A stretch of 64,000 nt of DNA from positions 13,245 to 77,244 of the IMG/VR virus record IMGVR_UViG_3300045988_172457. One strand, 5' to 3'. The translations under genes and the position numbers were made by a program. This document shows, one piece after another, positions 31,329 to 46,389 of this stretch; position 1 is the first letter of the stretch; every line of letters begins with the position of its first letter. The DNA comes from a virus. The notes under the pieces were generated by a model. It was not told the origin of the DNA. It saw only the letters and a list, made by a program, of their open reading frames with translations, and ran no database searches.

Positions 31329-32726
31329 ATGCCAACAACATTGATAATCGTCGCGGCAGTGGCGATACTCATCATCCTGCTCGCAACCGCAAGCTACAAG
31401 GTCTGCCCCGCCGACCGGGTAATGGTCATCACCGGGCCGGGTGGACGACGCTTCGTCTCCGGCGGAAGCGCGTTCATCATACCCTTCATCATGCGCGTGG
31501 ACTGGCTCTCCCTCGGAGCGGTGCAGTCGCTCCTGAGAACCGACACGCCGATTCCGACGAAGGACGCAATCCTCATCGACGTGAACGCCGTCGCGAACTT
31601 CCAGATAGCATCCGAGACCATGACCGTGGACGAGAACGGTAAACAGGTGAAGGCGTTGGAGAACGCCGCCAAGAACTATCTGAACCAGTCCAAGGAGCGA
31701 ATGGAGAAGGACGTGACGCAGGTGCTCTTGGGCAAGCTGCGCGAGGTCATCGGCAAGACCGAGTTGAAGGAGCTCATGGAGAACAGGGACACGTTCGCCG
31801 CGACCGTGGCCGAATCCGCCCGCGTGGATATGGAACGGCTTGGCCTTCAATTGACCACGTTCAACATTCAAGACTTCACCGACCGTCAGAACGTCATCGC
31901 CAACATGGGCGCTGAAATGGCCGCCGAAATCAGCCGGAATGCGAAGCTCGCGTCCATCAACGCGGAACAGGATGTGGCCGTCCGTCAGAACCAGCTCGAC
32001 CTGAAACGAGCCGAACTCCAATCCATCTCCGACAAGGCGCAGGCCGAGGCCGACGCGGTGAAGGGCATCACCGCCGCCGAACAGTCCAAAACTCTCAAAG
32101 TCAAGGAGCAAGAGGCTGAAATCGCCGCCGCCGAAAAGAAGGCAGTCCTCGAACAGAAGAACGCCGAAATCGAAGAGCAAAAACTGAACGCGACCATCCG
32201 CAAGAAGGCCGACGCCGACCGTTACGCCGCCGAACAGCAGGCCGACGCGCAAATGTACACAACCCAAAAACACGCCGACGCGGAACTGTACCTACGCCAG
32301 CAGGAGGCTCAGGCCATCCAATCCACAGCCGACGCGGACGCACACGCGACCGAAGTCAAAGGCAAGGCTGAAGGCTCCGCCGCACAGGCCAAGGGCGTGG
32401 GCGAGGCGGAGGCAATCCGCGCCCAAGGCCGAGCCTACAATGCGATGAACAACACGTACATCCTCGCCCAACAGTACATTCAGATTCTCCCCGACATGGT
32501 TCGAGCCGCCGCCGAACCGCTCACCAAGGTTGACCACATCACCATGTACGGCGACGGAAACAGCACGAAGCTCGTGGGCGACACGGTGAACAGTGTGAGC
32601 CAGTTGAGTGAGGGATTGTCGCAATCCTTGGGCATCGATTTGAAAGCCTTGCTGAACAGTATGGTGGCCGGTCATGCCGCCGGTTCCGCATTGAGTGAGA
32701 AAGGTTCCGAACAGTCCGGAAACTAG
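31329..32726 (+). CDS. Flotillin-like SPFH/Band-7 domain protein
   Basis: N-terminal TM, an SPFH core, and long A/E/Q/K-rich coiled-coil repeats typical of bacterial flotillins (FloT/YuaG-like). Confidence 0.8.
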   Translation: MPTTLIIVAAVAILIILLATASYKVCPADRVMVITGPGGRRFVSGGSAFIIPFIMRVDWLSLGAVQSLLRTDTPIPTKDAILIDVNAVANFQIASETMTVDENGKQVKALENAAKNYLNQSKERMEKDVTQVLLGKLREVIGKTELKELMENRDTFAATVAESARVDMERLGLQLTTFNIQDFTDRQNVIANMGAEMAAEISRNAKLASINAEQDVAVRQNQLDLKRAELQSISDKAQAEADAVKGITAAEQSKTLKVKEQEAEIAAAEKKAVLEQKNAEIEEQKLNATIRKKADADRYAAEQQADAQMYTTQKHADAELYLRQQEAQAIQSTADADAHATEVKGKAEGSAAQAKGVGEAEAIRAQGRAYNAMNNTYILAQQYIQILPDMVRAAAEPLTKVDHITMYGDGNSTKLVGDTVNSVSQLSEGLSQSLGIDLKALLNSMVAGHAAGSALSEKGSEQSGN

Positions 32727-32732
32727 CCTGTT

Positions 32733-32780
32733 CAGGGGCATGTTGGAGGGGTATGGGAAGCCATGCCCTCCTTATTTTTA
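32733..32780 (+). terminator. Rho-independent terminator after the flotillin gene
   Basis: GGAGGG-(gtatgggaagccatg)-CCCTCC followed by TTATTTTT. Confidence 0.5.
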
Positions 32781-32906
32781 AGGGCTGAAAGCATTCTTTC
32801 AAGGTTTTTAATGAGGGTGCGTGCGGTATATTAGGAATGCAATCCGATATTGACCCCGTTCGATGAATGAACGTGCGCCGGGTCTAGTAAGGAAAGGAAA
32901 ACAAAG

Positions 32907-34601
32907 GTGAAAACCAAAAACCCGTTGAAGGCAACGGTCGCCACGCTTGTGGCCGGTGCCATGGGTTTGGCTGGAGTCGGCTCCGCCATGGCGGCTGATA
33001 CTCGTGTTGACGCATCCAAGTTTGATGCGGCTGCTCGTCAGACGTTGACCGTCGCTGCTAATGGTGATATTAGCAATCGCACGTTGAAGGCTGTGCCGCT
33101 CGCCTACTATTCGTATGCGCAGACTGATGGTACTAATATTACCGGCTTTGACCTGATTGACGCGGGCAAGGCTTCTGCTATTGCTGACGCATTGACTAAA
33201 GCCAGTATTGACACTAAGTCCAAGAAAGACCAGACTGCCGGATACGACTATAATGCGTCCAATCCGATGGTGTGGGTCGTGCAGAATCTCCTTGATTCCG
33301 AGAACAGTCCGTGGGCTGGCAAGCTTCGTGACTTCATCGACCAGTTGAAGAACGAGGCCGCTGTCATCGGCGACAAGGGCACCGCGTTCGCCAAGGGCGC
33401 CGACGCCAAGCATATGACCGCTTCTGTCCGTCCGGGCGTGTACGCGGTCGTGGACACCACCAAGACCGGTCAGGCGTCCATCGTCATGTTCAACGGCACC
33501 GGCATCGATGGCAAGACCACGTTGAAGAACGGCGCCAAGACCTACACGCTGGGCACCGTGGACTATAAGGTACACGGCACCACCGTCACGAAGAAGATTA
33601 CCGCCGCCGAAAACGGCACCGTCGAAAACAGTGGCGCGACCGCCGAAACCGCTATCGGCAAGAAGGTCAGCTTCGAAATGACCAGCAAAGTGCCGAACTG
33701 GACTGGCTACGACAAGTACTATTACGCCATCAACGATACGTATTCCAAGGGCCTGACTTATGACGCGGCCAAGGACAACATGGTCGTGACCGTGGACGGT
33801 AAGACCCTCATCCGCGACACCGATTACAAGGTCACTACTGAGGATGGCAAGTTCCACATCATCTTCGCTCCGACCACCGGTGACTCCACCACCACATCCG
33901 ACATTGTGGCGATGAAAGCCAAGTTCCCGGTCGATGCCGCCGTTGACGTCAAGTACGGCATGTACGTGAACAAGAACGCCGTCTCCGGAACCGCCGACGC
34001 CAACACCAACGAGGTCGAATACTCGCATAATCCGAACACCGTCACCGACCATGAGACCACCCCGGGCCAGACCGACAAGGTGTACGTCGGCAAGTTCACC
34101 CTCACCAAGCACGACACGAACAACGCTCCGCTCGCCGGAGCCGAGTTCAAGGTGTACGAGGGCGACCAGACCACCACCCCGGTCAGGTTCGTCAAGTCCT
34201 CCGACGGCCTGACCTACCGCAAGGCCGACCTGACCGAGAGCACCGGCACCACCGACACCGTCACCAGCGTCGCTACTAGCAATGGCGTGCTCACGCTGAC
34301 CGGCCTCGACGGCAAGTACACGGTCAAGGAGACAAAGAGTCCGTTCAACGGCTCCATCCTGCCGCAGTTCACCCTGACCATCAAGGTGAACCAGTCGAAC
34401 GGCTCCTACATGCTCAGCCAGTTCGATAAGGACGCCAACAATCTGGCTTCCGAGAACGTTGACAAGATGGGTGTGACCGTCATCAACGCCCGCAACATCG
34501 CTGACATGCCGAAGACCGGTGCGGTCTGGCTGTCCATCTTCGGCGTGATGACCGTCCTGTTGGCTGGCGCTTCCGCCCTGCTGCTTCGTCGCAAGGCGTG
34601 A
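32907..34601 (+). CDS. Sortase-dependent major pilin (isopeptide-forming fimbrial subunit) with an MPKTG sorting signal
   Basis: Signal peptide, E-box-like GKYTVKETKSPFNG, and C-terminal ...DMPKTG + TM + RRKA. GTG start with a strong RBS. Confidence 0.8.
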   Translation: MKTKNPLKATVATLVAGAMGLAGVGSAMAADTRVDASKFDAAARQTLTVAANGDISNRTLKAVPLAYYSYAQTDGTNITGFDLIDAGKASAIADALTKASIDTKSKKDQTAGYDYNASNPMVWVVQNLLDSENSPWAGKLRDFIDQLKNEAAVIGDKGTAFAKGADAKHMTASVRPGVYAVVDTTKTGQASIVMFNGTGIDGKTTLKNGAKTYTLGTVDYKVHGTTVTKKITAAENGTVENSGATAETAIGKKVSFEMTSKVPNWTGYDKYYYAINDTYSKGLTYDAAKDNMVVTVDGKTLIRDTDYKVTTEDGKFHIIFAPTTGDSTTTSDIVAMKAKFPVDAAVDVKYGMYVNKNAVSGTADANTNEVEYSHNPNTVTDHETTPGQTDKVYVGKFTLTKHDTNNAPLAGAEFKVYEGDQTTTPVRFVKSSDGLTYRKADLTESTGTTDTVTSVATSNGVLTLTGLDGKYTVKETKSPFNGSILPQFTLTIKVNQSNGSYMLSQFDKDANNLASENVDKMGVTVINARNIADMPKTGAVWLSIFGVMTVLLAGASALLLRRKA

Positions 34602-34736
34602 GATTGGAAGATTGGAATACTGCCGTATGAGAAAACTTTTCTGACCGTTTGACGGTTGGAAAAGCATGAAATGTTCCGCTTGGCGTGTCGGGAACCCAAA
34701 TATCGACACGCCACCTTTTAGATTCTTTATAACCGC

Positions 34737-35642
34737 ATGGGAGGGGTTTTGGGAAAACATACGGCGAAACCGAAAGGCTTGGGAAATCGAGCCATAGCGG
34801 GACTTCTCTGCCTAATCCTATCCGCCCTGTCCGGAACCATCCCATTCATTCTCATGATTTCGAACAGCAGCCAATCCAACCGGTTGACCGACTCCCACGC
34901 GCAAGCCGTGGAAAACACTGACGTGAAACGAATCGCCCAAGAGTATGCGGACGCGCAAGCCTACAATCAACGCCTATACGAGGAAGGCCAGCCCATTCTT
35001 GGTGAGGCGGAAGACCCTTGGACAGGCGTCAACAAGTCCGAAACGGACAACACGTATCGGAAGCAACTATCCACCCCCAAGGATGGGGTCATGGCCACCA
35101 TCAAATATCCACGCTTGGGCATCAACCTGCCCATCCGGCATGGCACGTCGCAAAACGTGTTGGCCGCTGGAGCCGGACACTTATATGGTTCCAGTCTCCC
35201 CGTCGGCGGCAAGAACACGCATACTGTCATATCCGCGCACACGGGTTTGGCAGACCAGCTCATGTTCGACAAGCTACGAGGCTTCGGCAGTGAAGCCAAA
35301 AAAAGTGACGTCTTCTATCTGATAACCGCCGGACATACGCTCGCCTACAAGGTCACAAGCATTGATGTGGTAGACCCATCCGATTTCACCAAACTGAAAA
35401 TCGTCGCCGGAAAAGACCTCGCCACACTCCTAACCTGCACGCCATACGGCATCAACAACAAGCGACTCCTAGTGACCGGCACGCGCACCAGCATGCCGCA
35501 CCCCGCACCCAGACCCGAAAACGCGCCGAAAGACCACACGAACCAATGGCTCATACTGTACGTCGGCGGCTTCTGGCTTGCGGTAATCATCATCACCATT
35601 CTCATCATCCGTAGAAAAAACCACGCAAAGAAGGAACACTAA
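34737..35642 (+). CDS. srtC: Class C (pilus-specific) sortase
   Basis: TLLTCTPYG catalytic-Cys motif, N- and C-terminal TM segments, and position between the pilin and tip protein genes. Confidence 0.8.
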   Translation: MGGVLGKHTAKPKGLGNRAIAGLLCLILSALSGTIPFILMISNSSQSNRLTDSHAQAVENTDVKRIAQEYADAQAYNQRLYEEGQPILGEAEDPWTGVNKSETDNTYRKQLSTPKDGVMATIKYPRLGINLPIRHGTSQNVLAAGAGHLYGSSLPVGGKNTHTVISAHTGLADQLMFDKLRGFGSEAKKSDVFYLITAGHTLAYKVTSIDVVDPSDFTKLKIVAGKDLATLLTCTPYGINNKRLLVTGTRTSMPHPAPRPENAPKDHTNQWLILYVGGFWLAVIIITILIIRRKNHAKKEH

Positions 35643-38600
35643 TGGGTATTCTCAAAAAGCATGTGGCACATCCGGTAGCATTATTGGCCGCAATCGCCAC
35701 ACTGTCATCCGGCCTGATATGCATGACCAATCCGGTAGCCTCTCCGAAAGCGCATGCGGACGAGTTGAAACCCGCATATGCTACTGCGAAAATCGTTAAG
35801 AAAGCCGACGGTACGGGGCATGGCACGAGTTCGCAAACGTTCGTGAATTCGAAGAACGGGTTCGCCACGGGCGATGATTCCCCTACCGATGGCGTGGTCG
35901 CATCCGGTGATACGGTCGAATATTCTCTCACGTTGAACTTCAACGCGGCGGGCAAGCGTACCATCAACGTGAAGTTCGACTTGGATGACGCGCCGTATTT
36001 GCAGACTGCTGACGGTGGTGGCTTCTGCCAGCCGGGACAACTCGTCACCGCGAAGAAAAACAGTGACGGCTCCTGCTCCTACACGGTTCCAGCCGGTGGC
36101 GTGGAAACCATGACCCAAACCTTCTATCTGAAAGCAAAAGACACGGGAGGCTTGGTCAAGCCGGGTCAGATTCCGAAAATCGTCGTCGCCCGCGAAGGTG
36201 GAACGTCAACCACGTATCGTACGGATGAGCTGACTGTAGTATCCGCTCCGGCGGCTGACTTGGTCATTGACAATGGCGGCAATCCGGTGAAAGGCCAATA
36301 CTCGTATGAGCATCGTACTTATTGGAGTCAGAACACCGATGCGACCGGTGATTTCACTATTCGTACCGACGCGTTGACCTATCCGGGTTATTCGTCCACG
36401 AAGGGCGCGTCCACCAGCATCGATTGGACTACCAAAGTGGATATTTCCGACTTCCCGCAGGGCACCGTGTGGACTGTAGGCGGTCAGCGGATTACCCGTA
36501 ACAGTGATAAAGAACAGTATTTGACCGTATCCAGTGGCAAAAACGGTACGGCGGCGACAATCAGCTACAGGATTCCCGCCGGAACCGACGCGCTCAAAAA
36601 CATGAAAGAAGGAGACGTCAAATATTACGATGTCCACCTTGTTCCCGACGAAACCGTGTTCAGCGTCAAAGACGATAACGGCAACGCACTGTTGAACATG
36701 GGCAAGGGCGGCGAACCCGGCTGGAACATTGGACGGGACAAGAGCACCTACAACAAGGATACGGGTGCCCGCGTCGGCTACCCGTACGCGAACAATGACT
36801 GGTCACGAGCCATCATCCAACGGCTCAAGCCGACTCCAGCTGGCAAGATTCCACTGTTCGGCAAAGGACTGCAACGTCCTAACACTGCGTCCAAGACCAT
36901 GTTCGACAAGGAGAATCTGACGTTCGACGCCGCCGAAGGCAAAGCCGACATCTACCATTACTATTCCGACGGTTCCGGCGACACCGTGTCCCGTGGAACG
37001 CAAGTCAAAACCATTTTGGAAATGTATGCGGCGAACGTTACTGCGGACAAGCTTAAAAACACTACGCCGACCATGCAGGATGAGTGGGATAATACGCGCA
37101 TGCGGTGGGATGGAAGCTTGGAAGTCACCCAGAACGGTGCTCCGGTTTCCGACTACAAAGTTCAATGGGCTGATAGCAAAGACAATTGGCATGACGGGGA
37201 ACCATCCGACACGGACGCTCCGAACGTCAAGAAGATTCGGGTGACGTTCAACCCCGACACGTTGACTTTAGGAAAGGGTGCGCCGAACGTTCAGGTCACG
37301 TTCAACACGCTCGCCATAGCCGACGTGTCCAAAGGCAATGTGGAAGCTTTGGATACGCTGACCGCATGGCTTACCGAAGACGATAAGGCGAGCGTCACCA
37401 ATTGGGTGTGGATTGCCAAGCCGGTAGACCCGACCACCAGTATCGACATCAGTCTGAAAGCCTACGATGGTGAAGGCAATCAAGTGTATGCGAACAACAG
37501 TTCCAATCACCCGTCCGGAAGCGCAGTCGATTTGACTCCCGGCATGCGAGTGGATTATACGGTCACGGAACAGTTGCGCACCATTCTCCTGTCCAATACA
37601 AGCATGACGCCGACCATCACGGTGCCGAAACCGAAAGGCTTGTACAATCCGACCTGTGATGATTCGTTCTGGCAGATGAAAGTGGACGGGAATAATCTCG
37701 TGTTCACGCCACGTTCTGGCAAAGTCACGCCGGAAGTAGACCGTATGGGGTCGGCCACTTTGCCTGACCTGCATTTCAGTGGCATCGTATCCAATCTCGC
37801 CACCGGGACTGTGACCGCCAGTGCGAATATGAGCGTGGACGTTGACGAGAACGGCGCATTGCAAGCCCAAACCATCAAAAGCAATACGCCCAGCGTCCCA
37901 TTCCCCGTCTCCAATGCGGAAACCAACAGTGGCATCATGCGTGTGAAGACCACGAAGGCTGAAATCGGTGACCCGCTTACTTGGGAGTTCAACGTGTACG
38001 GCAAGGGCGGCGGTCACACCGGCACCATGGATAGCATGCTACTGCTTCCTGCGAATGGTGATGAGAAGTACGTGCAGGACAAGCTGGTCGAATATGAGCG
38101 TGGATACAGCAACTATCATGGCTCCTACGAACTGACCCAGCCCATCACGGTCAATATGGACAATTCGACCAGTACGACCGTCTACTATTCAACCACCACC
38201 GGAAAGAAGTCGGATAATCCGGCTGACTACGAGTGGAAGACATGGGACAAGTTGACGGATTCGGACAAGAAGAACATCACCGCCATCCGACTGACCAGCA
38301 CAGTCGTCGCATCCGACGAAAAACTATCCTATTCCGCAGTGAACGGCACCATCACGCTCAACCCGTCCGACAATGTGAAAGACGACAAGTACACGCTATG
38401 GTTGGGCCGCAACTATTATTCCGACACGGCAGGCAAGCCAGCAGGCAACCAGCCATGGCCTGACGTGGCGAACGTCGTCGTCGGTAGCATTTCCGGTACC
38501 GTCTGGTGGGATAAGGATGAGAACACGCTCATCGGAGATGGTGAGGAACGTATCGAAGGCGTGGAAGTCATCCTCAGCAAGCAGGATGCGAATGGTGCTT

Positions 38601-41245
38601 GGCAGTCCGTCAAGACAGTGAAAACCGACAAGGACGGGTATTACGAGTTCGACCTGCTCCACTCCGGCACGTACAAGACTTCGGTGAAACGCAATACGGG
38701 CACCAGTACGGGCGACGGCGTGCAAACCCAAGTCAAAACCTACTACGGCAAATTGGAAGACGTGACGAACACGCGCAGCTGGTCTAACAAAATCAAGTCC
38801 AACGCGACAGACACGTCCGACGACATCCACCTAGGTATCGGCATCAACCAGACCCACGTGGACTACGGTTACGCGAAACCAGACCTGAAAGCCACCGTAG
38901 ACAAAACCGTCACCGGCACCAATTGCACGGACACAAAATGCGTCATCAACTGGGATGTGAAGGTGCAGAATAAGGGCAAGAGCACCGAGAAGGCACCGAG
39001 TGTACCACCACTGAAGACATTTGCCGCAGGCGGCGCGCATTCACTCGCCTTGGATTCGGAAGGTCACCTATGGGCATGGGGATATAACCATGATGGCACG
39101 GGAACTGACCAGAGCACGCCGATTTTGGTTTCCGACGGTCATGTTTGGAAGTCTGGTGTTCAGGTTGTTCCTGATACTTCCACTGAGTCTTCCGGCACGT
39201 CTCGTTTTGATACTTCCAGTGTCGTGTCTGACCGTATGAGTGCTGATGTGCATGATGTGACGGCTACGGCGGGTACTGTGAGTATTGAATCCGGTGGTGC
39301 GAAGCAGGTTGCGACGAGTGGCGACCATAAGTTTGTGTTGACGAATGAGGGCTTGTTGTATGCGTGGGGTAATAACCAGTATGGTCAATTGGGTTTCAAG
39401 CCTGACTCCACGAACACGAGTACTCCGGTGAACGTGAACAAGCCGACCATCATCAACGGTAGTTGGCTGAAAGTCGCCGCCGGTGGCAAACATTCCGCCG
39501 CCATCAGCACGGACGGACACCTGTACACGACCGGTTGGAATAGTAGAGGCCAATTGGGTACGGGTGATACGGACAATCGTTTCGAATGGACGGAAGTCGC
39601 TTCGGATAAGACGTTCACGGACGTGGCATGCGGCAACCAGTTCACCGTCGCCATCGCCAGTGACGGAACCCTGTGGGCCACGGGAAACATTGGCAACAAG
39701 ACTTACACGAGTCTGACCCAGATTAGCTCCGTCACATCCACGCAAGTCAGCGCAAGCATGGACTCGTTCATCGCATTGACCAAGAACGGCGGAAGCCTGT
39801 ATGCGGGCGCTTCGACCGCATTAACCCCAAAAGGAAGCGGCTATATGCAGGTGGCCGCCGCATTCGGTCAAGTATACGCGTTGACCAATTCGGGCACCGT
39901 CCAACCGGTAGCCACCCTGAACCGCGACGGCTATTCGCCCAACGTGTCCAGTCTGAAGGACATCACACTCATCAGCGGCGGCTATCAGACCTTGTACGCC
40001 ATCGACAAGAACCAACACTTGTGGGCTTCAGGCTGGAATGGTGACGGACAATTGGCGAACGGCAAGACCGGCAACGGCATGTATTGGACGGACGACTCCA
40101 CCGGTAACAACACGGACATCATCGGCACGCCAGTCGATACGGGCATCATCGCCTCCGACGTGGCGGGCGGCGACCGTGACGTGCTCATTCTTGGCAAGCA
40201 GGTCATGATTGCGGGCTTCGACCCGTATGGTGACGGTAAGACGGGTGGCGCGCGTTCGATCGGTTTGAAGGGTATGGCGGTCTCGTCCGACCCGACCGCC
40301 GTACCTGTCGAACCATCGAGCGAAACCACTGAGAATGGGTTGACTACCCGCACGTACAATCTGCCGTATTCGATTGAGCCGGGCGGCTATGTCATCTACC
40401 ATTTCACCGGCACAGTTGACCGTGAGACCGCTGACATGACGGGCAAAGACCAGACGTACATTGACGAGTGGGTTAAGAAGAATACGAAGACCATTCTCAA
40501 CCAAGCATGGTTCGACTCCGAACACACGCCATATTCGGGCACGCCACACGCAAGCGGCAAAAACAAGCCGAACACTCCGGACGCTACGAAACTGGATGCC
40601 AACACGAATGATGTGACCGGCAATCCGACATGCCGCACCGACACGGACTATACGGAGGAAGGACGCCAACACTGGTTCAGCACGTCCGATGAGGACTCCT
40701 GCGACCAAGTCGGCACCATCATCACACCAACCACCACCGCGAAGAAACTCGGTTCCATCAGCGGCCTGTATTGGGAGGATACCAACAAGAACGGCATTCA
40801 AGATGAAGGTGAGAACACGCATTTCGCCGGTCAGACGGTCATTCTGACTGACGAGAACGGCAAACAGTTGGCAACCACCAAGACCGACAAGGATGGCAAG
40901 TACATTTTCAAACGTCTGGACGCGAACGGCAACAAATACCGTATCCAATTCACCAAAGTGAACCACCGGGACTTCACCACGCCGGATGTGGGAGACAAGA
41001 CTCCTGCGGCGGATGGAAGCTCCACTGATTCGGATGCTTACACGGATGAAGCCAACAAGCTGACCATCACCCTCACCCAAGATGCTCCAACCAAGGAGCA
41101 TGTGGATGCGGGTGTCCTGCCTGAAACATGGTTGGCGACCATGCCGCACACGGGCATGGGATTGCTGTTGCCGCTCCTCATGCTCGTCAGCATCAGCGGA
41201 CTCGTCGCGGCAATCATCCTCCTACGAAAGAAGGAAGAACAGTGA
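35642..41245 (+). CDS. Giant sortase-anchored surface protein / putative pilus tip adhesin (1867 aa) with a ~7-blade RCC1-repeat beta-propeller and CnaB/SdrD-B-like domains. Its sorting signal is MPHTG.
   Basis: Signal peptide. RCC1 repeats (HLWAWGYNHDGTGTDQ, LYAWGNNQYGQLG, LYTTGWNSRGQLGTG, LWASGWNGDGQLANG). SdrD-B-like ISGTVWWDKDENTLIGDGEERIEGVEV... and LYWEDTNKNGIQDEGEN... segments. C-terminal LPETWLATMPHTG + TM + RKKEEQ. Confidence 0.8.
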   Translation: MGILKKHVAHPVALLAAIATLSSGLICMTNPVASPKAHADELKPAYATAKIVKKADGTGHGTSSQTFVNSKNGFATGDDSPTDGVVASGDTVEYSLTLNFNAAGKRTINVKFDLDDAPYLQTADGGGFCQPGQLVTAKKNSDGSCSYTVPAGGVETMTQTFYLKAKDTGGLVKPGQIPKIVVAREGGTSTTYRTDELTVVSAPAADLVIDNGGNPVKGQYSYEHRTYWSQNTDATGDFTIRTDALTYPGYSSTKGASTSIDWTTKVDISDFPQGTVWTVGGQRITRNSDKEQYLTVSSGKNGTAATISYRIPAGTDALKNMKEGDVKYYDVHLVPDETVFSVKDDNGNALLNMGKGGEPGWNIGRDKSTYNKDTGARVGYPYANNDWSRAIIQRLKPTPAGKIPLFGKGLQRPNTASKTMFDKENLTFDAAEGKADIYHYYSDGSGDTVSRGTQVKTILEMYAANVTADKLKNTTPTMQDEWDNTRMRWDGSLEVTQNGAPVSDYKVQWADSKDNWHDGEPSDTDAPNVKKIRVTFNPDTLTLGKGAPNVQVTFNTLAIADVSKGNVEALDTLTAWLTEDDKASVTNWVWIAKPVDPTTSIDISLKAYDGEGNQVYANNSSNHPSGSAVDLTPGMRVDYTVTEQLRTILLSNTSMTPTITVPKPKGLYNPTCDDSFWQMKVDGNNLVFTPRSGKVTPEVDRMGSATLPDLHFSGIVSNLATGTVTASANMSVDVDENGALQAQTIKSNTPSVPFPVSNAETNSGIMRVKTTKAEIGDPLTWEFNVYGKGGGHTGTMDSMLLLPANGDEKYVQDKLVEYERGYSNYHGSYELTQPITVNMDNSTSTTVYYSTTTGKKSDNPADYEWKTWDKLTDSDKKNITAIRLTSTVVASDEKLSYSAVNGTITLNPSDNVKDDKYTLWLGRNYYSDTAGKPAGNQPWPDVANVVVGSISGTVWWDKDENTLIGDGEERIEGVEVILSKQDANGAWQSVKTVKTDKDGYYEFDLLHSGTYKTSVKRNTGTSTGDGVQTQVKTYYGKLEDVTNTRSWSNKIKSNATDTSDDIHLGIGINQTHVDYGYAKPDLKATVDKTVTGTNCTDTKCVINWDVKVQNKGKSTEKAPSVPPLKTFAAGGAHSLALDSEGHLWAWGYNHDGTGTDQSTPILVSDGHVWKSGVQVVPDTSTESSGTSRFDTSSVVSDRMSADVHDVTATAGTVSIESGGAKQVATSGDHKFVLTNEGLLYAWGNNQYGQLGFKPDSTNTSTPVNVNKPTIINGSWLKVAAGGKHSAAISTDGHLYTTGWNSRGQLGTGDTDNRFEWTEVASDKTFTDVACGNQFTVAIASDGTLWATGNIGNKTYTSLTQISSVTSTQVSASMDSFIALTKNGGSLYAGASTALTPKGSGYMQVAAAFGQVYALTNSGTVQPVATLNRDGYSPNVSSLKDITLISGGYQTLYAIDKNQHLWASGWNGDGQLANGKTGNGMYWTDDSTGNNTDIIGTPVDTGIIASDVAGGDRDVLILGKQVMIAGFDPYGDGKTGGARSIGLKGMAVSSDPTAVPVEPSSETTENGLTTRTYNLPYSIEPGGYVIYHFTGTVDRETADMTGKDQTYIDEWVKKNTKTILNQAWFDSEHTPYSGTPHASGKNKPNTPDATKLDANTNDVTGNPTCRTDTDYTEEGRQHWFSTSDEDSCDQVGTIITPTTTAKKLGSISGLYWEDTNKNGIQDEGENTHFAGQTVILTDENGKQLATTKTDKDGKYIFKRLDANGNKYRIQFTKVNHRDFTTPDVGDKTPAADGSSTDSDAYTDEANKLTITLTQDAPTKEHVDAGVLPETWLATMPHTGMGLLLPLLMLVSISGLVAAIILLRKKEEQ

Positions 41246-41256
41246 AAGGAACAAGA

Positions 41257-42189
41257 ATGGGCGAACACGCCACACAATCACACGGGAGCCGTCACATGGT
41301 TCGGCGGCTCCTCGCCACCCTCGCCATCATGAGCGCGGTCTGCGGCGGCTTCCTCACCGGTAGTGCAATAGCCGCCGAACCAGCCAAATGCAATACTGGC
41401 GTGGACAAGGTTTGCTACGCGGGCTATAACGCGGCGGGATTGAAACAGATTGCCGACGATTTAAGCGAGAAAGGCAAAGGAAGCACATACTATGCCGCAA
41501 TGGAAAAGAACCTGACCGACGGGGTCAAAGGCACGCTCACCCTATCAGACGGCTCGAACCTCCCATTCCGACTCATCGGCATCCTCCACGACGACAAAGC
41601 CGACGGAAGTGGACGAAAAGCAGGATTGACGTTCATGGCTTGGAACGCGTTACCGAAAGCGTATGCCATGAACAATAGTCACACCAATAATGGCGGCTGG
41701 CGTGACAGTCTTCTCCGCAATCAGATGAACAATGGTGAAATCTGGAACCAATTCCCAACCGACTTCCAAAACAACGTCACAACCGTGCTGAAACAAACCA
41801 ACAACATGGCCTACGGAAGCACAGTCGGTTCAAGCGCGTCAGCCACGGCAGACAAAGTATGGCTCGTCTCCTACCGTGAACTCGTACCAACCTTATACGA
41901 TGGTTGGAAGACCTCTGGTGGTTTCCAAGCGTTGAATCAGGAGGGAAGCCAATACGAGTATTTCCACGGTAAGGTGACAAATAACTGGTCGGGTAATAGC
42001 ATTCTCTCCGGCATCTACAAGACCGTTTCCGGTTCCACTCCTCTTGGTGCTAGCTACGGCAGTTGGTGGGAGCGTTCGCCCCACCTGGGCAACAACTACT
42101 TTTTCCTCCTAGTGCACTCGCACGGCGACCCCAGCTACAGCGGCGGTGCCTACGATCGCTGCTCCGTTGTCCCCGCTTTCTCCTTCTAA
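41257..42189 (+). CDS. DGR target gene: secreted protein (310 aa) with the variable region (VR) at its C-terminus
   Basis: Signal peptide (LLATLAIMSAVCGGFLTGSAIA). Its 3' 168 bp match a downstream template repeat with adenine-specific differences. Start chosen at ATG 41257, which has an RBS. Confidence 0.7.
   Translation: MGEHATQSHGSRHMVRRLLATLAIMSAVCGGFLTGSAIAAEPAKCNTGVDKVCYAGYNAAGLKQIADDLSEKGKGSTYYAAMEKNLTDGVKGTLTLSDGSNLPFRLIGILHDDKADGSGRKAGLTFMAWNALPKAYAMNNSHTNNGGWRDSLLRNQMNNGEIWNQFPTDFQNNVTTVLKQTNNMAYGSTVGSSASATADKVWLVSYRELVPTLYDGWKTSGGFQALNQEGSQYEYFHGKVTNNWSGNSILSGIYKTVSGSTPLGASYGSWWERSPHLGNNYFFLLVHSHGDPSYSGGAYDRCSVVPAFSF
42022..42189 (+). repeat. DGR variable region (VR)
   Basis: Aligns with TR 42820-42987 at a fixed offset of 798 bp. 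About 23-24 mismatches lie at TR adenines and only 1 non-A mismatch lies in the body. Three non-A mismatches in the last 10 nt look like IMH (homing-signal) end differences. Confidence 0.8.
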
Positions 42190-42201
42190 TCCCCAATCCT
42201 T

Positions 42202-42228
42202 GGGTGGTGGGGTTCATCCCCACCACCC
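42202..42228 (+). promoter_or_regulatory. Perfect 11-bp-stem hairpin immediately 3' of VR (DGR target-site hairpin/cruciform candidate)
   Basis: GGGTGGTGGGG-ttcat-CCCCACCACCC lies 12 nt after the target stop codon. Confidence 0.6.
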
Positions 42229-42261
42229 CTCCAAACTCAAATCTCACACAAAAGGAGTCCT

Positions 42262-42777
42262 ATGACGGTTCCCGCAAGCAAACGTACAAAAGCCAAAAGC
42301 GAATATGCGAATCAGGCCAGAATCGTGCTCTTGGCTACCAGAAATCTGTTCCGCAAATGGCCTAAAAGCCGTAACTGCATTGAAACCGTGCATGTCATGC
42401 ATATCGCCTACGAAATGTACTCCTCCGCCTACAGTGCCGACATCATTTATGCAAGCACTGTAGAAGAGCATGAGATGAAACTGCAACTGTTGTGCAAGGC
42501 CCAAGGCATGCTGAACTCACTCTCCGGTCTTGTGGACGATTGGATGGAGTTTCCTCCACGGGAAAAAGACTTGGAAGCCTACAGGAAATATCCGGAAGGC
42601 GACCCCAGATACAATCCCGTCGTCAAGGAGAAGAAATTCGTGAACTATGCGGGAATCCTCTACAAGGCGATGGGCGTGTTCACCGGAGCCGTCAAGTATG
42701 AGCGAGACCAGTTGAAGAAAGCTAAAAACGCCGAGTCGAAAACGAACACTATAATGGATACTCGGGCGCAAGCCTAA
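42262..42777 (+). CDS. avd: Putative DGR accessory variability determinant (Avd-like, 171 aa, basic)
   Basis: Position between VR and TR, as in the canonical DGR cassette order. Basic helical small protein with a good RBS. The assignment is by synteny. Confidence 0.5.
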   Translation: MTVPASKRTKAKSEYANQARIVLLATRNLFRKWPKSRNCIETVHVMHIAYEMYSSAYSADIIYASTVEEHEMKLQLLCKAQGMLNSLSGLVDDWMEFPPREKDLEAYRKYPEGDPRYNPVVKEKKFVNYAGILYKAMGVFTGAVKYERDQLKKAKNAESKTNTIMDTRAQA

Positions 42778-42819
42778 AATATAATTGAACAAAATCGGCC
42801 ATATCCAAACTATGGTGAC

Positions 42820-42987
42820 ACCGTTTCCGGTTCCACTCCTCTTGGTGCTAACAACAACAATTGGTGGGAGCGTTCGCCCAACCCGAACAACAACAACAAT
42901 TTCCTCCAAGTGAACTCGAACGGCGACCCCAGCTACAACAACAATGCCAACAATCGCTACTCCGTTGTCCCCGATTCCTCTTACCAA
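42820..42987 (+). repeat. DGR template repeat (TR), rich in AAC/AAT codons
   Basis: Near-identical to VR except at adenines. TR AAC AAC AAC AAT corresponds to VR AGC TAC GGC AGT, and similarly elsewhere. Confidence 0.8.
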
Positions 42988-43167
42988 AAACTAACATCAG
43001 ATAGGCCAGTAGCCCAATGGGTGAAAGCCTCCCGAAGGGGAAGGGGATATGGTCGAATGCGCGGCCCCTCGAAAAATGGGTTGCGTGTGAAATAGGTTGA
43101 GGGAGATATTAAGACTGTCGGAAACGACGGATACTCGCCCCTTAAGCTGGGCGTCCAACATCATTGC

Positions 43168-44397
43168 ATGTCTTGGGTTGTTGCCGACGACCTGCCCTCA
43201 ACCATTCTTTTCTCTTTCCCTAGTGAAGGAAGCATTAAAATCGTGAATGCGAGTCAAAGACGTAGAAGACGCCAACGCAGACTGCAACAACGCTCGGATG
43301 ATAAGTACAGGAAGCTCCACCGTTACATCGACTTCCAACAAACATTCGGATTCGACGCGCTCTACCAAGCCGCAAGAAAATGCAAACGCGGCGTCACATG
43401 GAAAAACACAGTGTTGAACTTCGACAATAGGCGTGCCGTCAACTGTTGGAAACTCGCCCAAGAATTAGAGGACGGCACATACAAGAAGAGAGCGCCAATC
43501 CGATTCGACATTTCCGAACGAGGCAAACTCCGCCACATCAGCGCGGTATCCTTCCGAGACCGGGTGGTGCAACGCGCCTTATGCGACAACAGTCTCGTCC
43601 CCATCGTGGAAAGCCAACTGATATACGATAATGCGGCAAGCCTACCGAAACGTGGAACATCGTTCGCCCGAAAACGGTTCGAACTACACTATAAGCGGGC
43701 TTTGGGCAAATGGGAGCATCCGTATGCTGTCATCTTCGACTGTGCCAACTATTTCGGAAGTATCAGCTCCCAACGAGCGTTCGATATGATTTCCACCCTG
43801 TACCGGAGCATCGCCCGCACCGGACGGGAGAAGCAGGATGTGGAACGGATTCTAACCGTATTGAGAATCTTCGTATTGGACGAACCTCACTTGGGTTTAG
43901 GCAATCAGACAAGCCAAACCATGGCTATCTGGTATTTGAACAAGGTTGACCACTGGTGCATGTCGCAAGGATTCTACGGACGGTATATGGATGATGCCTA
44001 CTGTTTCTGCAAGAATCGTGAACAGGCCGAACGTGTGCTGGCCGGTTACGAGCGGCATGTCAATCAATTGGGATTGCGGTTGAACAAGCGCAAGACCCGC
44101 ATAGTGGACTGTCGCACCGGTCAACTCACATTCCTGAAACGCGTATACAGCGTACAGGATGACGGCAGTATTCTTATCCGCATGCACCATAAGGCGTTGC
44201 GTGCAAGCCGACGGCATGCGCGTAACCTTATCCGCTCATATGATGGCGTGCATGTGGGATTGCGGACAGTTCAGGATTCTTGGACGAGCCATGAGAGCAC
44301 ACTGTCGGGTCTAACTCACCGTCGTGGACTGTGCGCTCGGGAGAAAGCGTGGTATCGGAGGCATTGTGAAATGCGGAAGCTGGCTTTTCACCCGTGA
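43168..44397 (+). CDS. DGR reverse transcriptase
   Basis: Conserved DGR-RT N-terminal block (AARKCKRGVTW...ELEDGTYKKRAPIRFDISERGKLRHISAVSFRDRVVQRAL). The motif-4 SQ variant (LGNQTSQTMAIWYL) is a DGR hallmark. YMDD catalytic motif. Confidence 0.85.
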   Translation: MSWVVADDLPSTILFSFPSEGSIKIVNASQRRRRRQRRLQQRSDDKYRKLHRYIDFQQTFGFDALYQAARKCKRGVTWKNTVLNFDNRRAVNCWKLAQELEDGTYKKRAPIRFDISERGKLRHISAVSFRDRVVQRALCDNSLVPIVESQLIYDNAASLPKRGTSFARKRFELHYKRALGKWEHPYAVIFDCANYFGSISSQRAFDMISTLYRSIARTGREKQDVERILTVLRIFVLDEPHLGLGNQTSQTMAIWYLNKVDHWCMSQGFYGRYMDDAYCFCKNREQAERVLAGYERHVNQLGLRLNKRKTRIVDCRTGQLTFLKRVYSVQDDGSILIRMHHKALRASRRHARNLIRSYDGVHVGLRTVQDSWTSHESTLSGLTHRRGLCAREKAWYRRHCEMRKLAFHP

Positions 44398-44554
44398 TTT
44401 CCGGACTTTCCAGATTGGTGGAGGGGTGTAATCTGCTGGAAGCGGTGGCGCAGAATCTTCCGCTTCCTCAATCGTTTGGATGAGATTTCGTGAGGCTTGG
44501 ATTGTATCGTATTTCACTCGGCATGCTTGTCGACTAGTTTTTCTTCCCAGCTTG

Positions 44555-44577
44555 GTGTTACACTGGGTTTACTTGCA
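44555..44577 (+). promoter_or_regulatory. Member of the repeated promoter/leader motif family (GTGTTACACTGGGTTTACTTGCA)
   Basis: Matches the family consensus TGTTAyACTGG..(10-12 nt)..CA. Lies ~90 nt upstream of the 44667 start. Confidence 0.4.
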
Positions 44578-44666
44578 TTTCCTTCCTCGGGACTTCGCCC
44601 ATGTGGGGCTTTAGAGGTTATCAGCGCATTGGTCAGAGTATGCCGTTTGAGTGAAAGGAAACTGTC

Positions 44667-45278
44667 ATGGCAGGTTTTGATGATATTACGGTCACTCGCA
44701 GTGATGTCCGTTTGAAGGTTAAGGCTCCGTATAATCCGTTGTTCGCACGTCGCTCCCGCGCGTTGGGTGGAACGTTTGATGACAAGTTGAAGACTTGGAC
44801 GTTCGATATGCGTGTGGAAAGGCTGGTGTTCGAAGCTTTAGACAAATATTTCTGGTGGCATAAGGGCGTGGACGCTGAAAAGCGTGTCACAGTCACCATC
44901 GACCCCTACGACTACTTGTACGCGTACTCCAAGCAGGATAGCGACATTATCTGGTTCGCTGGTCGAATCCTAGTCGAAAAATATCAGCCCGACCGTCCAC
45001 CGCGCATGATGCCGAATGTGGCTCTCGTGGATGGCATGTGGCCTAAAACCGGCTTGTATACGGGGTTGAATCTCAGTCCCGACAAACTCCGATTATTGGT
45101 ATGGGATGTTCCCACCAGTTTTCTGGAACGACTGTCGTCCGGCAAGTATGAGTTGTCTGAGCCGGATGGTGACACGTTGACTGCGGTTGACGTTCGTATT
45201 CAGGCTGTGGAGGAACGGTTAGGCCGGTTGAGGGAACTCCGAACCCGACTCGCCTCTAATAGTGAGGATGGTGAATGA
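44667..45278 (+). CDS. Hypothetical protein (203 aa)
   Basis: ORF with RBS GAAAGGAAAC before the ATG. Confidence 0.6.
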   Translation: MAGFDDITVTRSDVRLKVKAPYNPLFARRSRALGGTFDDKLKTWTFDMRVERLVFEALDKYFWWHKGVDAEKRVTVTIDPYDYLYAYSKQDSDIIWFAGRILVEKYQPDRPPRMMPNVALVDGMWPKTGLYTGLNLSPDKLRLLVWDVPTSFLERLSSGKYELSEPDGDTLTAVDVRIQAVEERLGRLRELRTRLASNSEDGE

Positions 45279-46282: not shown

Positions 46283-46292
46283 CAAAAAGAAA

Positions 46293-46317
46293 AGCCCCTC
46301 GACTGAGGGGCTTTTTC
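46293..46317. terminator. Bidirectional rho-independent terminator
   Basis: AAAAAG-AGCCCCTC-gact-GAGGGGCT-TTTTT, between convergent genes. Confidence 0.6.
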
Positions 46318-46389
46318 AGTAAATGTCACATGGTGTCGGGATTGAATTCTTCCAGCTTGTCCATGCTAAACCGCCCAGAACAACAAAAC

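Follow-up and report, generated by a model that had tools for sequence, protein, structure and literature searches.

Background

Diversity-generating retroelements (DGRs) are densest in the human gut, yet few of their cellular targets in Gram-positive commensals have, to our knowledge, been characterised. Sortase-dependent pili of the SpaA type are represented in the Actinomycetota by Corynebacterium SpaABC, Actinomyces FimPQ and the pil clusters of Bifidobacterium, and the prototype DGRs are those of Bordetella phage BPP-1 (Mtd), Treponema (TvpA) and Legionella (LdtA); see also PDB 2y3c. The locus considered here carries genes of both kinds and lies in a window of 64,000 nucleotides, by which we mean the whole stretch of DNA that was analysed (positions 13,245 to 77,244 of the IMG/VR record IMGVR_UViG_3300045988_172457).

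With the prototype DGRs, this locus shares the order target, Avd (here putative), TR and RT, mutagenesis at adenines, a TR rich in AAY, a C-type-lectin fold that holds the VR at its C-terminal end, and a GC hairpin that follows the VR. It differs in that the targets of the cellular prototypes are anchored lipoproteins whereas the present one is led by a cleavable Sec signal and lacks an anchor, and in that no sequence similarity to known Avd was detected for its putative accessory protein. What it has in common with the SpaA-type pili is a sortase of class C, isopeptide domains and an E-box in the backbone pilin, and a second, large protein with a sorting signal; by contrast, its pilin lacks the canonical YPKN motif, its sorting motif is MPxTG and not LPxTG, its large subunit bears an RCC1 propeller, and a fourth gene is added that encodes an unsorted lectin.

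A close functional parallel is found in Bacteroides, where type V pili carry DGR-diversified adhesins (Macadangdang et al., bioRxiv 10.1101/2024.11.15.621889). Those pili are Gram-negative, are assembled by strand exchange and hold the variable domain within a pilus subunit, whereas here the genes are of the Gram-positive sortase type, the host is a Bifidobacterium and the variability resides in a polypeptide of its own, which is secreted and lacks a sorting signal; the present system works like the type V pilus adhesins but is not a member of that group. The same preprint does not mention sortase, and flags an uncharacterised Actinomycetota DGR clade that is enriched in infants.

The DUF6273 targets of phage DGRs are tentaclins and Mtd-like proteins (PMC10743442; bioRxiv 10.1101/2024.10.15.618418), which have in common with the present target the Pfam domain, the C-type-lectin-like fold and a VR at the C-terminus of the domain, and which are also sometimes kept after loss of the DGR. 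They are, however, tail or head-decoration proteins of gut phages, with 34% identity or less to our target, which is a stand-alone secreted protein in a bacterial pilus operon. A DUF6273 domain is also found at the N-terminus of the Thomasclavelia ramosa IgA peptidase (PDB 9qa6; PMC12402451), where it is joined to an M64 protease and not diversified by a DGR; the text consulted gives this domain no function. In the literature searched we found neither a DGR combined with sortase pili, so that the suggestion of a preliminary description of this DNA that the locus fits no described class still stands, nor a link between RCC1 and bifidobacterial sortase-dependent pili.

Results and Discussion

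Source plasmid and boundaries of the module

The window derives from a gut Bifidobacterium megaplasmid of about 200 kb that is a distant relative of pMP7017. Its products include one RepA_C and one ParA-like protein, and the genes of nine backbone proteins are collinear with positions 42-60 kb of pMP7017, with protein identities of 37-59%; since there is no match to pMP7017 at the nucleotide level, these identities place the two plasmids in sister lineages. The plasmid setting proposed beforehand is therefore borne out. The block in synteny includes DnaB, the ParA-like protein and a large ATPase, and related contigs (185-232 kb) fall in a similar size class, but pMP7017 is without the pilus, DUF6273 or DGR module and the genes 3' of its dnaB are different ones, among them type I-E cas genes (PMC10832533, PMC8313286).

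The genes for pilin, class C sortase, giant surface protein, DUF6273 target, Avd-like protein, TR and RT follow one another on the + strand at window positions 32907-44397 and form a single mobile module (Table 1); positions and strand of every gene named in the preliminary description hold. Only three terminator-like sites were found on this strand, at 32748-32769 (after a Band_7 gene), at 44518-44533 (after the RT gene) and within the coding end of the giant gene. Rfam and tRNA scans across the window returned nothing. A nucleotide search of positions 32000-45000 against the PLSDB plasmids and INPHARED phages gave no match, nor did a tblastn search of plasmids with the target protein, and the module is thus missing from those annotated collections, pMP7017 included.

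Table 1. Features of the pilus-DGR module, in window coordinates
Feature	Position	Strand	Size or detail	Basis
Backbone pilin	32907..34601	+	564 aa	PF16569, PF17802, TIGR04226, sorting signal
Two strong RNA hairpins, pilin-sortase spacer	34636..34713 (34636-34664; 34681-34713)	+		RNA folding
Class C (pilus-polymerising) sortase	34737..35642	+	301 aa	NF033745, PF04203
Giant wall-sorted surface protein, presumed pilus tip adhesin	35642..41245	+	1867 aa	Pfam, PDB sequence matches, AF2, Foldseek
DGR target, Sec-secreted single-domain DUF6273 / C-type-lectin-fold protein	41257..42189	+	310 aa	
VR, last 56 codons of target including stop	42022..42189	+	83% identity to TR	
GC-rich 11-bp hairpin, 13 nt past target stop	42202..42228	+	-14.7 kcal/mol, z -5.1	DNA folding
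Putative Avd-like accessory gene, between target and TR	42262..42777	+	171 aa, pI 9.4	Position, size and charge only
TR	42820..42987	+	17 AAY codons; 25 codons able to vary	
DGR reverse transcriptase	43168..44397	+	409 aa	PF00078, phrog_1423, motifs

The pilin and its sortase

The pilin has an N-terminal signal peptide, GramPos_pilinBB and SpaA domains, a TIGR04226 isopeptide domain (50.9 bits for a cut-off of 30), an E-box-like motif (YTVKETKSPFNG) and a C-terminal sorting signal made of MPKTG, a transmembrane segment and RRKA; its NF033902 score (83.9 bits) falls under the cut-off of 95. The pilin has no YPK of the kind that ends the canonical pilin motif WxxxVxVYPK and supplies the linking lysine; a candidate for this lysine is Lys221, which is invariant within a conserved LGxV[DE][YW]K directly before the middle domain. 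The sortase exceeds the NF033745 cut-off of 160 with 222.6 bits and has a DPW lid and a C-terminal transmembrane anchor.

Between these two genes, two hairpins (MFE -40.1 kcal/mol, z -3.3, equal stability in 0 of 200 shuffles), the second followed by a U-rich tract, may tune the pilin:sortase:tip ratio through partial termination or attenuation. They may also uncouple transcription of the downstream genes from that of the pilin, which would count against the joint expression proposed below.

The giant RCC1-propeller protein

The stop codon of the sortase gene overlaps the ATG of the giant gene by 1 nt. The giant protein carries a signal peptide, two SdrD_B domains, an RCC1 propeller of the seven-blade type at residues 1125-1476 (PF25390, 216 bits) and a C-terminal MPHTG followed by a transmembrane segment and KKEEQ, which, together with the class C sortase and the pilin domains, upholds the earlier reading of a pilus gene set with an 1867-aa RCC1 protein. 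Against PDB sequences, the propeller matched UVR8, HERC2 and RCC1 (1e-32 to 1e-21), and SdrD was matched too.

Residues 35-1133 gave an all-beta AF2 model (pLDDT 70), in which the N-terminal stalk appears as a chain of beta-sandwich (Ig-like) domains, and for which the best Foldseek matches are SdrD, antigen I/II and the Ig-like domains of PrgB. We rejected the PrgB match as a sign of a role in conjugation because, with TM values of 0.12-0.19, it is a generic multi-Ig similarity. By analogy with other gene clusters, the giant is presumed to be the tip protein of the pilus. MPxTG occurs in both pilin and giant wherever the lectin is present, and LPxTG in both in B. scardovii, in which the lectin is absent; a motif common to the two proteins that co-varies between lineages fits a single dedicated sortase for both substrates.

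The DUF6273 target

The target begins at ATG 41257, preceded by AAGGA, 12 nt past the last base of the stop of the giant gene (41245) and 3' of pilin and sortase, as previously described; an alternative in-frame GTG start at 41242 overlaps that stop (GTGA). It has a signal peptide, and its sequence contains no LPXTG/TM tail, lipobox or transmembrane segment, in agreement with the earlier view of a secreted protein without a sorting motif of its own. Lipoprotein anchoring was considered and rejected, since the cysteine of the signal peptide is not conserved and there is no lipobox.

The match to the DUF6273 profile (PF19789, a C-type-lectin-like domain) exceeds the curated cut-off and the fold agrees; the VR forms the C-terminal end (...VVPAFSF*), at the 3' end of the ORF, and residues 1-37 are disordered in the AF2 model. 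The mature lectin consists of one domain, with no obvious docking module. Without a sorting signal, it cannot act as a sortase donor substrate, and any attachment would then be non-covalent or by unknown chemistry.

The retroelement and its activity

The TR and VR, each of 168 nt, differ at 28 positions, 24 of them at TR adenines, and three of the four other mismatches are grouped at the 3' (IMH-like) end. The 25 variable TR codons correspond to a theoretical repertoire of about 1e25, and no further VR was found elsewhere in the window. Having no T-run, the hairpin after the VR matches the hairpin/cruciform that flanks the VR in DGRs and not a terminator; its role is presumably that of its counterpart in the BPP-1 DGR.

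The gene that follows, in the canonical position, is putatively Avd-like; its basic product matched nothing in Pfam, NCBIfam or PDB sequences, and its close homologues number only six, too few for a profile. In the RT, LGNQTSQ stands at residue 244 and YMDD at 273; the protein matches PF00078, phrog_1423 (5e-56) and, by tblastn, the RTs of gut-phage DGRs and Bordetella phage records.

Three database clusters at 90% identity hold 753, 1229 and 274 sequences; in the 15 members of each on which our figures of VR variation rest, scaffolds are identical or near-identical and variation falls almost solely at VR codons. In the first cluster, 27 of the 28 variable positions lie in the VR, 25 of these at TR codons that contain A; the values for the third are 25 of 35 and 24. 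By their sizes, the clusters would represent from hundreds to over a thousand different VR alleles on a single scaffold. Such a pattern makes it almost certain, as far as sequences can tell, that the DGR is active in nature.

Conservation of the giant-lectin pair and decay of the DGR

The adjacency of giant and DUF6273 genes was found in more than 25 loci, with target identities of 34-95%, at plasmid and chromosomal sites and in two actinobacterial classes; the genome-contig scan contributed at least 7 loci and the metagenome scan was the source of the census. Linkage is seen on plasmids (L001, L002, L005, L022), on chromosomes beside aroA, plsC, gpsA and ddl (L004, L019, L020), in Senegalimassilia (L008) and in three other loci (L006, L007, L021). 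The giant gene lies immediately 5' of the lectin gene, with a gap of 11-14 nt or an overlap, start and stop overlapping in most lineages, and this holds for all 16 metagenome loci in which target identity is at least 57% and the sequence extends 400 nt or more upstream. Because all orthologous loci examined, from Bifidobacterium plasmids and chromosomes, from Senegalimassilia and from metagenomes, have a DUF6273 gene directly 3' of the giant gene, the adjacency is not due to chance.

Among the most distant loci, L051 (34%) keeps the order pilin-sortase-giant-lectin, its giant being without a recognisable sorting signal, and a fragment resembling the giant lies upstream of the lectin in L052 (33%) and L046 (43%, GC 42%). 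Homologous DGR targets free of any pilus linkage, a possibility raised in the preliminary description, do exist as remote DUF6273 relatives (phage receptor-binding proteins, below about 35% identity), but none was found among orthologues.

An intact DGR is restricted to the plasmid lineage and to a fused type. In L001 the DGR is gone through a 4-kb deletion and the pair is kept; the same holds for L006, L007, L019, L021, L038, L040-42 and L044, where only Avd or RT remnants persist, those of Avd lying 3' of the target in DGR-less cassettes. This strengthens the claim that a plasmid sortase-pilus locus ends in the gene of a secreted ligand-binding protein diversified by a DGR, the arrangement having outlived the retroelement. 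In the fused type, genes for a sortase and an RT lie beside a single ORF of L049 for a SpaA/SdrD_B protein of 2713 aa, at whose end DUF6273 domains stand in tandem. A related locus, L018, with three VRs for one TR, had suggested two genes (a giant and a 480-aa protein), which we reject in favour of one broken ORF because L049 has the same architecture in one piece.

L022 has giant and lectin with no adjacent pilin or sortase. In L015-L017, next to a TrwC relaxase gene, an internal deletion destroyed sortase and giant while pilin and an intact lectin were kept; since a lectin protein identical to theirs occurs on many contigs, it may function without the giant. The three-gene pilus cluster of B. 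scardovii lacks DUF6273, from which it follows that the pilus does not need the lectin and that the lectin, probably with the DGR, is an add-on. Across 10 plasmid loci, allelic divergence of the giant and of the lectin scaffold correlated weakly (Spearman 0.32, 0.42 and 0.07 for propeller, stalk and C-terminus of the giant), values confounded by linkage and by one frameshifted locus.

Proposed mechanism and alternatives

Our overall explanation, to which we give a probability of roughly 60%, is that the lectin of this pilus cassette is diversified by the DGR and works with the giant as a ligand-binding subunit that can be exchanged. The lectin, whose binding module is of the kind seen in phage receptor-binding proteins, would have joined an older pilus cluster of three genes, probably along with the DGR; the DGR has been lost repeatedly, with the lectin retained. 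Where the DGR is intact, the RT would copy the TR RNA with misincorporation at adenines and the cDNA would replace the VR (mutagenic retrohoming), rewriting up to 25 codons of the C-terminal binding face and leaving the scaffold unchanged. As the lectin gene is packed against the giant gene, with which it would be co-transcribed and is probably translationally coupled, the two proteins would be made together; the lectin would act in concert with the giant, to which it would most likely be bound non-covalently, whether at the pilus tip or on the cell surface, and plasmid-bearing bifidobacteria could thereby retune their adhesion to gut ligands. A functional partnership of the lectin with the giant or the pilus cassette is probable from the genomic record, physical docking on either is possible but doubtful, and we are more tentative still about the most specific version, a two-component sortase-pilus tip, programmable by the retroelement, in which a separately secreted hypervariable lectin docks non-covalently on an RCC1-propeller tip protein.

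The lectin could instead be independent of the pilus, as part of a phage-derived target-Avd-TR-RT unit that was inserted 3' of the operon, its adjacency owed to a promoter and then to descent, and its product secreted or wall-associated (for example for binding of glycan, IgA or phage). The target does come with an RBS and a signal peptide of its own, it resembles phage receptor-binding proteins without a pilus link in fold and has its nearest remote relatives among them, its closest solved structure is a domain of the secreted IgA peptidase, the pilus cluster of B. scardovii occurs without the lectin, and in L015-L017 the lectin persists although the giant was deleted. We nevertheless consider this unlikely, as adjacency is kept down to 34% identity over different sites, two classes and one low-GC organism, the lectin start overlaps the giant stop in most lineages, giant and lectin stay together where pilin and sortase are absent, a giant-DUF6273 fusion exists beside a sortase, and the lectin remains in place after decay of the DGR. 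Still less probable is that the giant is no pilus component at all but a separately wall-anchored, MSCRAMM-like adhesin, with homopolymeric pili formed by the pilin and the lectin as partner of the giant only, on the cell surface. L022, a giant homologue that stands alone in B. rousetti, and SdrD_B and Ig-like domains typical of wall-anchored adhesins would agree with this; against it are the 1-nt overlap of the giant gene with the class C sortase gene, the rare MPxTG that pilin and giant have in common and that co-varies between lineages, and a three-gene layout like that of two-component sortase pili.

The preliminary description had also proposed a role in mating-pair formation, and in its strongest form the pilus and variable lectin would serve mainly this purpose for the megaplasmid, in the manner of the pCF10 aggregation substance PrgB, with the DGR widening the range of recipient surfaces. 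The module does sit on a pMP7017-like conjugative backbone, a TrwC relaxase adjoins it in L015-L017, the Ig-like stalk is structurally nearest to the Ig-like domains of PrgB, and only the plasmid lineage and the fused type have an intact DGR. However, pMP7017, which is described as conjugative, is without the cassette, which also occurs at a housekeeping chromosomal site, and the resemblance to PrgB is the generic one noted above; any such role is unlikely to be essential, and we regard conjugation as the main function as highly improbable.

Conclusions

Through this locus, a DGR that is in all likelihood active is tied to surface organelle genes of Bifidobacterium, a key early-life coloniser, on a transmissible megaplasmid. 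The recurrent gene pairing suggests a programmable pilus-associated adhesin, and points to a pilus-associated subunit without a sorting signal and to a family of RCC1-propeller pilus proteins with MPxTG, none of which we found described in the literature searched; the module may be the infant-enriched Actinomycetota DGR clade of Macadangdang et al. (bioRxiv 10.1101/2024.11.15.621889). The split and the fused forms, together with the repeated cases in which the DGR decayed and the lectin was kept, offer a natural series for the study of how a bacterial adhesin takes up a binding module of phage type. Should the lectin indeed form an exchangeable part of the tip, it would be the first DGR-diversified adhesin of a sortase pilus and the first pilus tip accessory to bypass sortase, and a conjugative megaplasmid would supply bifidobacteria, those of the infant gut among them, with an adhesin that can be rewritten in situ to another specificity. 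This yields a testable model in which bifidobacteria could vary their adhesion to mucus and host glycans or to other microbes, or could do so under pressure from IgA or phages.

Conserved linkage of the giant and DUF6273 genes

We inspected the neighbourhoods of target homologues at falling levels of identity, drawing on a set of at least 251 homologues and recovering roughly 30 cassettes, and the key new result is that the DUF6273 protein diversified by the retroelement (DGR), hereafter the lectin, keeps a conserved linkage to the giant, the 1867-aa wall-sorted protein presumed to form the pilus tip. The order pilin-sortase-giant-DUF6273, in which the giant and DUF6273 genes either overlap or lie 11-14 nt apart, is common to other plasmid contigs (L001, L002, L005), to the chromosomes of B. 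moukalabense and MCC02031 (L004, L019, L020), at a housekeeping site adjoining aroA, plsC, gpsA and ddl, to further contigs (L006, L007, L021) and to a genome of Senegalimassilia (Coriobacteriia; L008). Of the metagenome loci scanned, 16 combine a target identity of 57% or more with 400 nt or more of sequence before the target, and in all 16 the giant lies directly upstream. At 34% target identity (L051), pilin, sortase, giant and lectin follow in order, the pilin ending in LAHTG and the giant having no recognisable sorting signal, and on a contig of 42% GC (L046) a FPLTG-sorted giant-like gene precedes the lectin. A 190-kb contig (L022) carries the giant and DUF6273 with no pilin or sortase adjoining, and in three loci next to a TrwC relaxase (L015-L017) the pilin and an intact DUF6273 gene flank an internal sortase/giant deletion.

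B. scardovii possesses a homologous pilin-sortase-giant cluster (L023; giant 42% identical) without DUF6273, and in B. rousetti the giant stands alone. Taking the B. scardovii cluster together with the linkage survey, the lectin was added to a pilus cluster that predates it and, once acquired, has stayed at the 3' end of the giant gene.

Genes of the pilus module

The module genes are closely packed in series on the + strand (window 32907-44397), the giant ATG and the sortase stop having one base in common.

Features of the pilus and DGR module, in window coordinates
Feature	Position	Strand	Characteristics
Pilin	32907-34601	+	564 aa; signal peptide, GramPos_pilinBB and SpaA domains, TIGR04226 isopeptide domain
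Pilin motifs	32907-34601	+	E-box-like YTVKETKSPFNG; C-terminal MPKTG, hydrophobic stretch, RRKA
Class C sortase	34737-35642	+	NF033745 222.6 bits (cut-off 160); DPW lid; C-terminal anchor
Giant	35642-41245	+	1867 aa; signal peptide; RCC1 propeller (residues 1125-1476); two SdrD_B domains; MPHTG, TM, KKEEQ
VR (variable region)	42022-42189	+	83% identical to TR
GC hairpin	13 nt past target stop	+	11 bp, no T-run, z -5.1
Candidate Avd (accessory variability determinant)	between target and TR	+	basic 171-aa ORF in Avd position; assigned by place
TR (template region)	42820-42987	+	17 AAY codons; 25 codons able to vary; about 1e25 possible sequences
RT (reverse transcriptase)	43168-44397	+	LGNQTSQ and YMDD motifs; matches phage DGR RTs

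The propeller of the giant is recognised by PF25390 at 216 bits and matches UVR8, HERC2 and RCC1 in the PDB (1e-32 to 1e-21). Residues 35-1133 are modelled by AF2 as a string of beta-sandwich domains (pLDDT 70), for which the top Foldseek matches are Gram-positive adhesin stalks (PrgB Ig-like domains, SdrD and antigen I/II). In both sortase substrates MPxTG replaces LPxTG, as MPKTG in the pilin (window 34520-34601) and MP[HMT]TG in the giant (window 41140-41245), and this holds for every DUF6273-bearing cassette compared (window; L001, L004-L008, L015, L022, L028-L042). In the B. scardovii cluster the motifs are LPKTG and LPHTG, so that the variant co-varies between pilin and giant; this supports the view that a single sortase would handle both substrates and hence that the giant has a pilus role.

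Among otherwise near-identical plasmids, in which sortase and RT are 96-100% identical, the giant stalk (residues 1-890) is 98-100% identical and the RCC1 propeller region (window 38900-40100, residues about 1085-1480) only 42-67%, with a 71-aa indel at window 38972-39189. The lectin scaffold, too, has short alleles of 310 aa and long ones of 321-327 aa. This pattern suggests that the exposed parts are under diversifying selection or recombination.

On the + strand, terminator-like sites were found only at 32748-32769 and 44518-44533, which flank the module, and within the coding end of the giant. The module genes are thus probably co-transcribed, a reading tempered by two strong hairpins in the pilin-sortase spacer (window 34636-34664 and 34681-34713; z -3.3), the second followed by a U-rich tract. 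These may act as an attenuator that lowers sortase, giant and lectin relative to pilin.

The diversified protein and its retroelement

The preliminary description placed the target 12 nt after the giant stop, downstream of the pilin and class C sortase genes, and these coordinates were borne out: the ATG, preceded by AAGGA, is at 41257, and an alternative in-frame GTG at 41242 overlaps the giant stop (GTGA). The product, 310 aa (mature form, residues 39-310) with the VR at its end, was also rightly described as secreted without a sorting motif, as it has a cleavable signal peptide and inspection of its sequence revealed no LPXTG, TM segment or lipobox. Residues 43-310 form one globular domain (AF2 with 48 homologues; pLDDT 85.7, pTM 0.83), with BFVD matches to phage tail-fibre and DUF6273 proteins, and DUF6273 has already been described in gut phages as a C-type-lectin-like DGR target (PMC10743442; bioRxiv 10.1101/2024.10.15.618418). 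The target is therefore a binding module of the type that phages use for receptors, and it has no further domain dedicated to docking.

The DGR is genuine and active. TR adenines account for 24 of the 28 differences between TR and VR, and of the remaining four, three are grouped at the 3' end, where non-A mismatches are expected for IMH/IMH*. The candidate Avd has no detectable homology to any named family or protein in Pfam, NCBIfam or PDB. When sequences are clustered at 90% identity, the exact window target falls in a cluster with 753 distinct members, with sister clusters of 1229 and 274, and VR diversity was read from 14-15 members per cluster. Among these members the scaffold (the first 254 or so residues) is identical or nearly so, and the VR holds 27 of the 28 variable positions in cluster 1 (25 of these 27 at A-containing TR codons) and 25 of 35 in cluster 3 (24 at such codons). 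Read from sequence, this variation is population-scale evidence of mutagenic homing. Some database members (P0122, P0136) carry unmutated TR-encoded sequence (NNNN...) followed by the translated TR 3' flank; proteins of this type are VR/TR assembly collapses, a caveat for counts of VR alleles. Two overlapping ORFs, window 44667-45278 (203 aa) and 45275-46282 (335 aa), lie 3' of the RT and follow it in L005 as well; neither belongs to a Pfam or NCBIfam family, and the first matches weakly phrog_18108, a family of no known function.

Among the loci surveyed, an intact RT was found only in plasmid-type loci of 52-54% GC and in a fused type (L049/L018). A B. pseudocatenulatum plasmid contig (L001, GCA_020526265.1) has undergone a single clean deletion of about 4 kb (window 42420-46438; L001 10888-11235) that took most of Avd (its 3' part), TR, RT and the two downstream ORFs; having lost TR and RT, its lectin would be frozen. 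Avd or RT fragments occur in chromosomal and other high-GC cassettes (L006, L007, L019, L021, L038, L040-42, L044). From these remnants and the L001 deletion, the DGR appears to have been present early in the history of the cassette and to have decayed repeatedly, while the lectin gene was kept with a 'fossil' VR.

The fused type was found in gut contigs of 58-61% GC (L049 4586-12727, L018 3927-11443). In L049 a single 2713-aa SpaA/SdrD_B protein terminates in tandem DUF6273 domains, with a sortase gene upstream and an RT downstream, and L018, a close relative of L049, has three VRs and one TR. Upstream of this type lie the sortase and a pair of small proteins, of which one carries an FSKTG and TM tail, and downstream an Avd-like gene, a TR and an RT 40% identical to that of the window. 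By a Rosetta-stone-type argument, DUF6273 modules might operate on fibrillar, sortase-linked surface proteins; this is only suggestive, as the fused giant has no detectable homology to the window giant and appears to have no C-terminal sorting signal.

Host and replicon

The target has relatives of named origin in Bifidobacterium pseudocatenulatum, B. moukalabense and a Bifidobacteriaceae isolate. RepA_C and ParA-like genes occur in the window, together with nine backbone proteins collinear with pMP7017, the conjugative megaplasmid of B. breve (37-59% identity), and related contigs group at 185-232 kb. The claim that a DGR-diversified protein is linked to a Gram-positive sortase pilus operon on a plasmid thus agrees with the DGR hallmarks, the conserved linkage and this backbone. 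pMP7017 itself lacks the pilus, DUF6273 and DGR genes, so that the module is accessory cargo of a sister lineage.

Between dnaB and the pilus operon lies an SPFH/Band_7 (flotillin-like) gene (window 31329-32726), followed by the terminator-like hairpin at 32748-32769. Plasmid loci L001, L002 and L005 keep the gene in this place, but the chromosomal cassettes lack it. The closest relative of the module (L005, contig k141_14853; 97% nucleotide identity) has this DnaB-Band_7 backbone in a contig of 614,956 bp, far above the 185-232 kb of the plasmid contigs, which could reflect chromosomal integration, a co-integrate or misassembly. Other cargo comprises an IS605-family TnpB (OrfB; 597-1766), a GmrSD-like restriction endonuclease domain protein (4515-5540) and an RNA ligase with a PHA02142 OB-fold (59954-61009). 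No tRNA genes or Rfam families were detected across the whole 64 kb.

Possible role and relation to known systems

We infer that the giant and lectin would be made together by translational coupling and that the lectin would dock non-covalently on the giant at the pilus tip. In the main alternative the lectin is secreted and acts on its own, its gene simply riding along with the pilus operon. Docking is made less likely by the lack of an extra domain in the lectin, by its persistence without the giant in L015-L017 and by the absence of a sorting signal, which bars it from being a sortase donor. A partnership of the lectin with the giant remains our preferred reading, docking at the tip being a possible form of it, and the earlier interpretation is supported in its essentials, except that mating-pair formation, which it had offered as a role for pilus and lectin, is unlikely to be the main one: the cassette also occupies a chromosomal housekeeping site, and pMP7017 is described as conjugative yet is without the cassette.

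Bifidobacteria are well known to carry sortase pili. The literature searched contained no paper that brings a DGR together with sortase and pili, in agreement with the preliminary view that the system fits no described class, and none linking RCC1 with bifidobacterial sortase-dependent pili; a global survey of DGRs is silent on both pili and sortase. The pMP7017 papers (PMC10832533, PMC8313286) describe no such module. The adhesins of Bacteroides type V pili are diversified by DGRs, in a preprint that leaves sortase unmentioned and only notes an Actinomycetota DGR clade, enriched in infants and so far uncharacterised (bioRxiv 10.1101/2024.11.15.621889). Given these precedents and negatives, the module is a new combination of known kinds: it shares its domain with the DUF6273 targets of gut phages, but the gene lies here in a sortase-pilus cassette, and it shares the DGR-pilus theme with Bacteroides, but in a new Gram-positive, split-subunit version carried on a megaplasmid.
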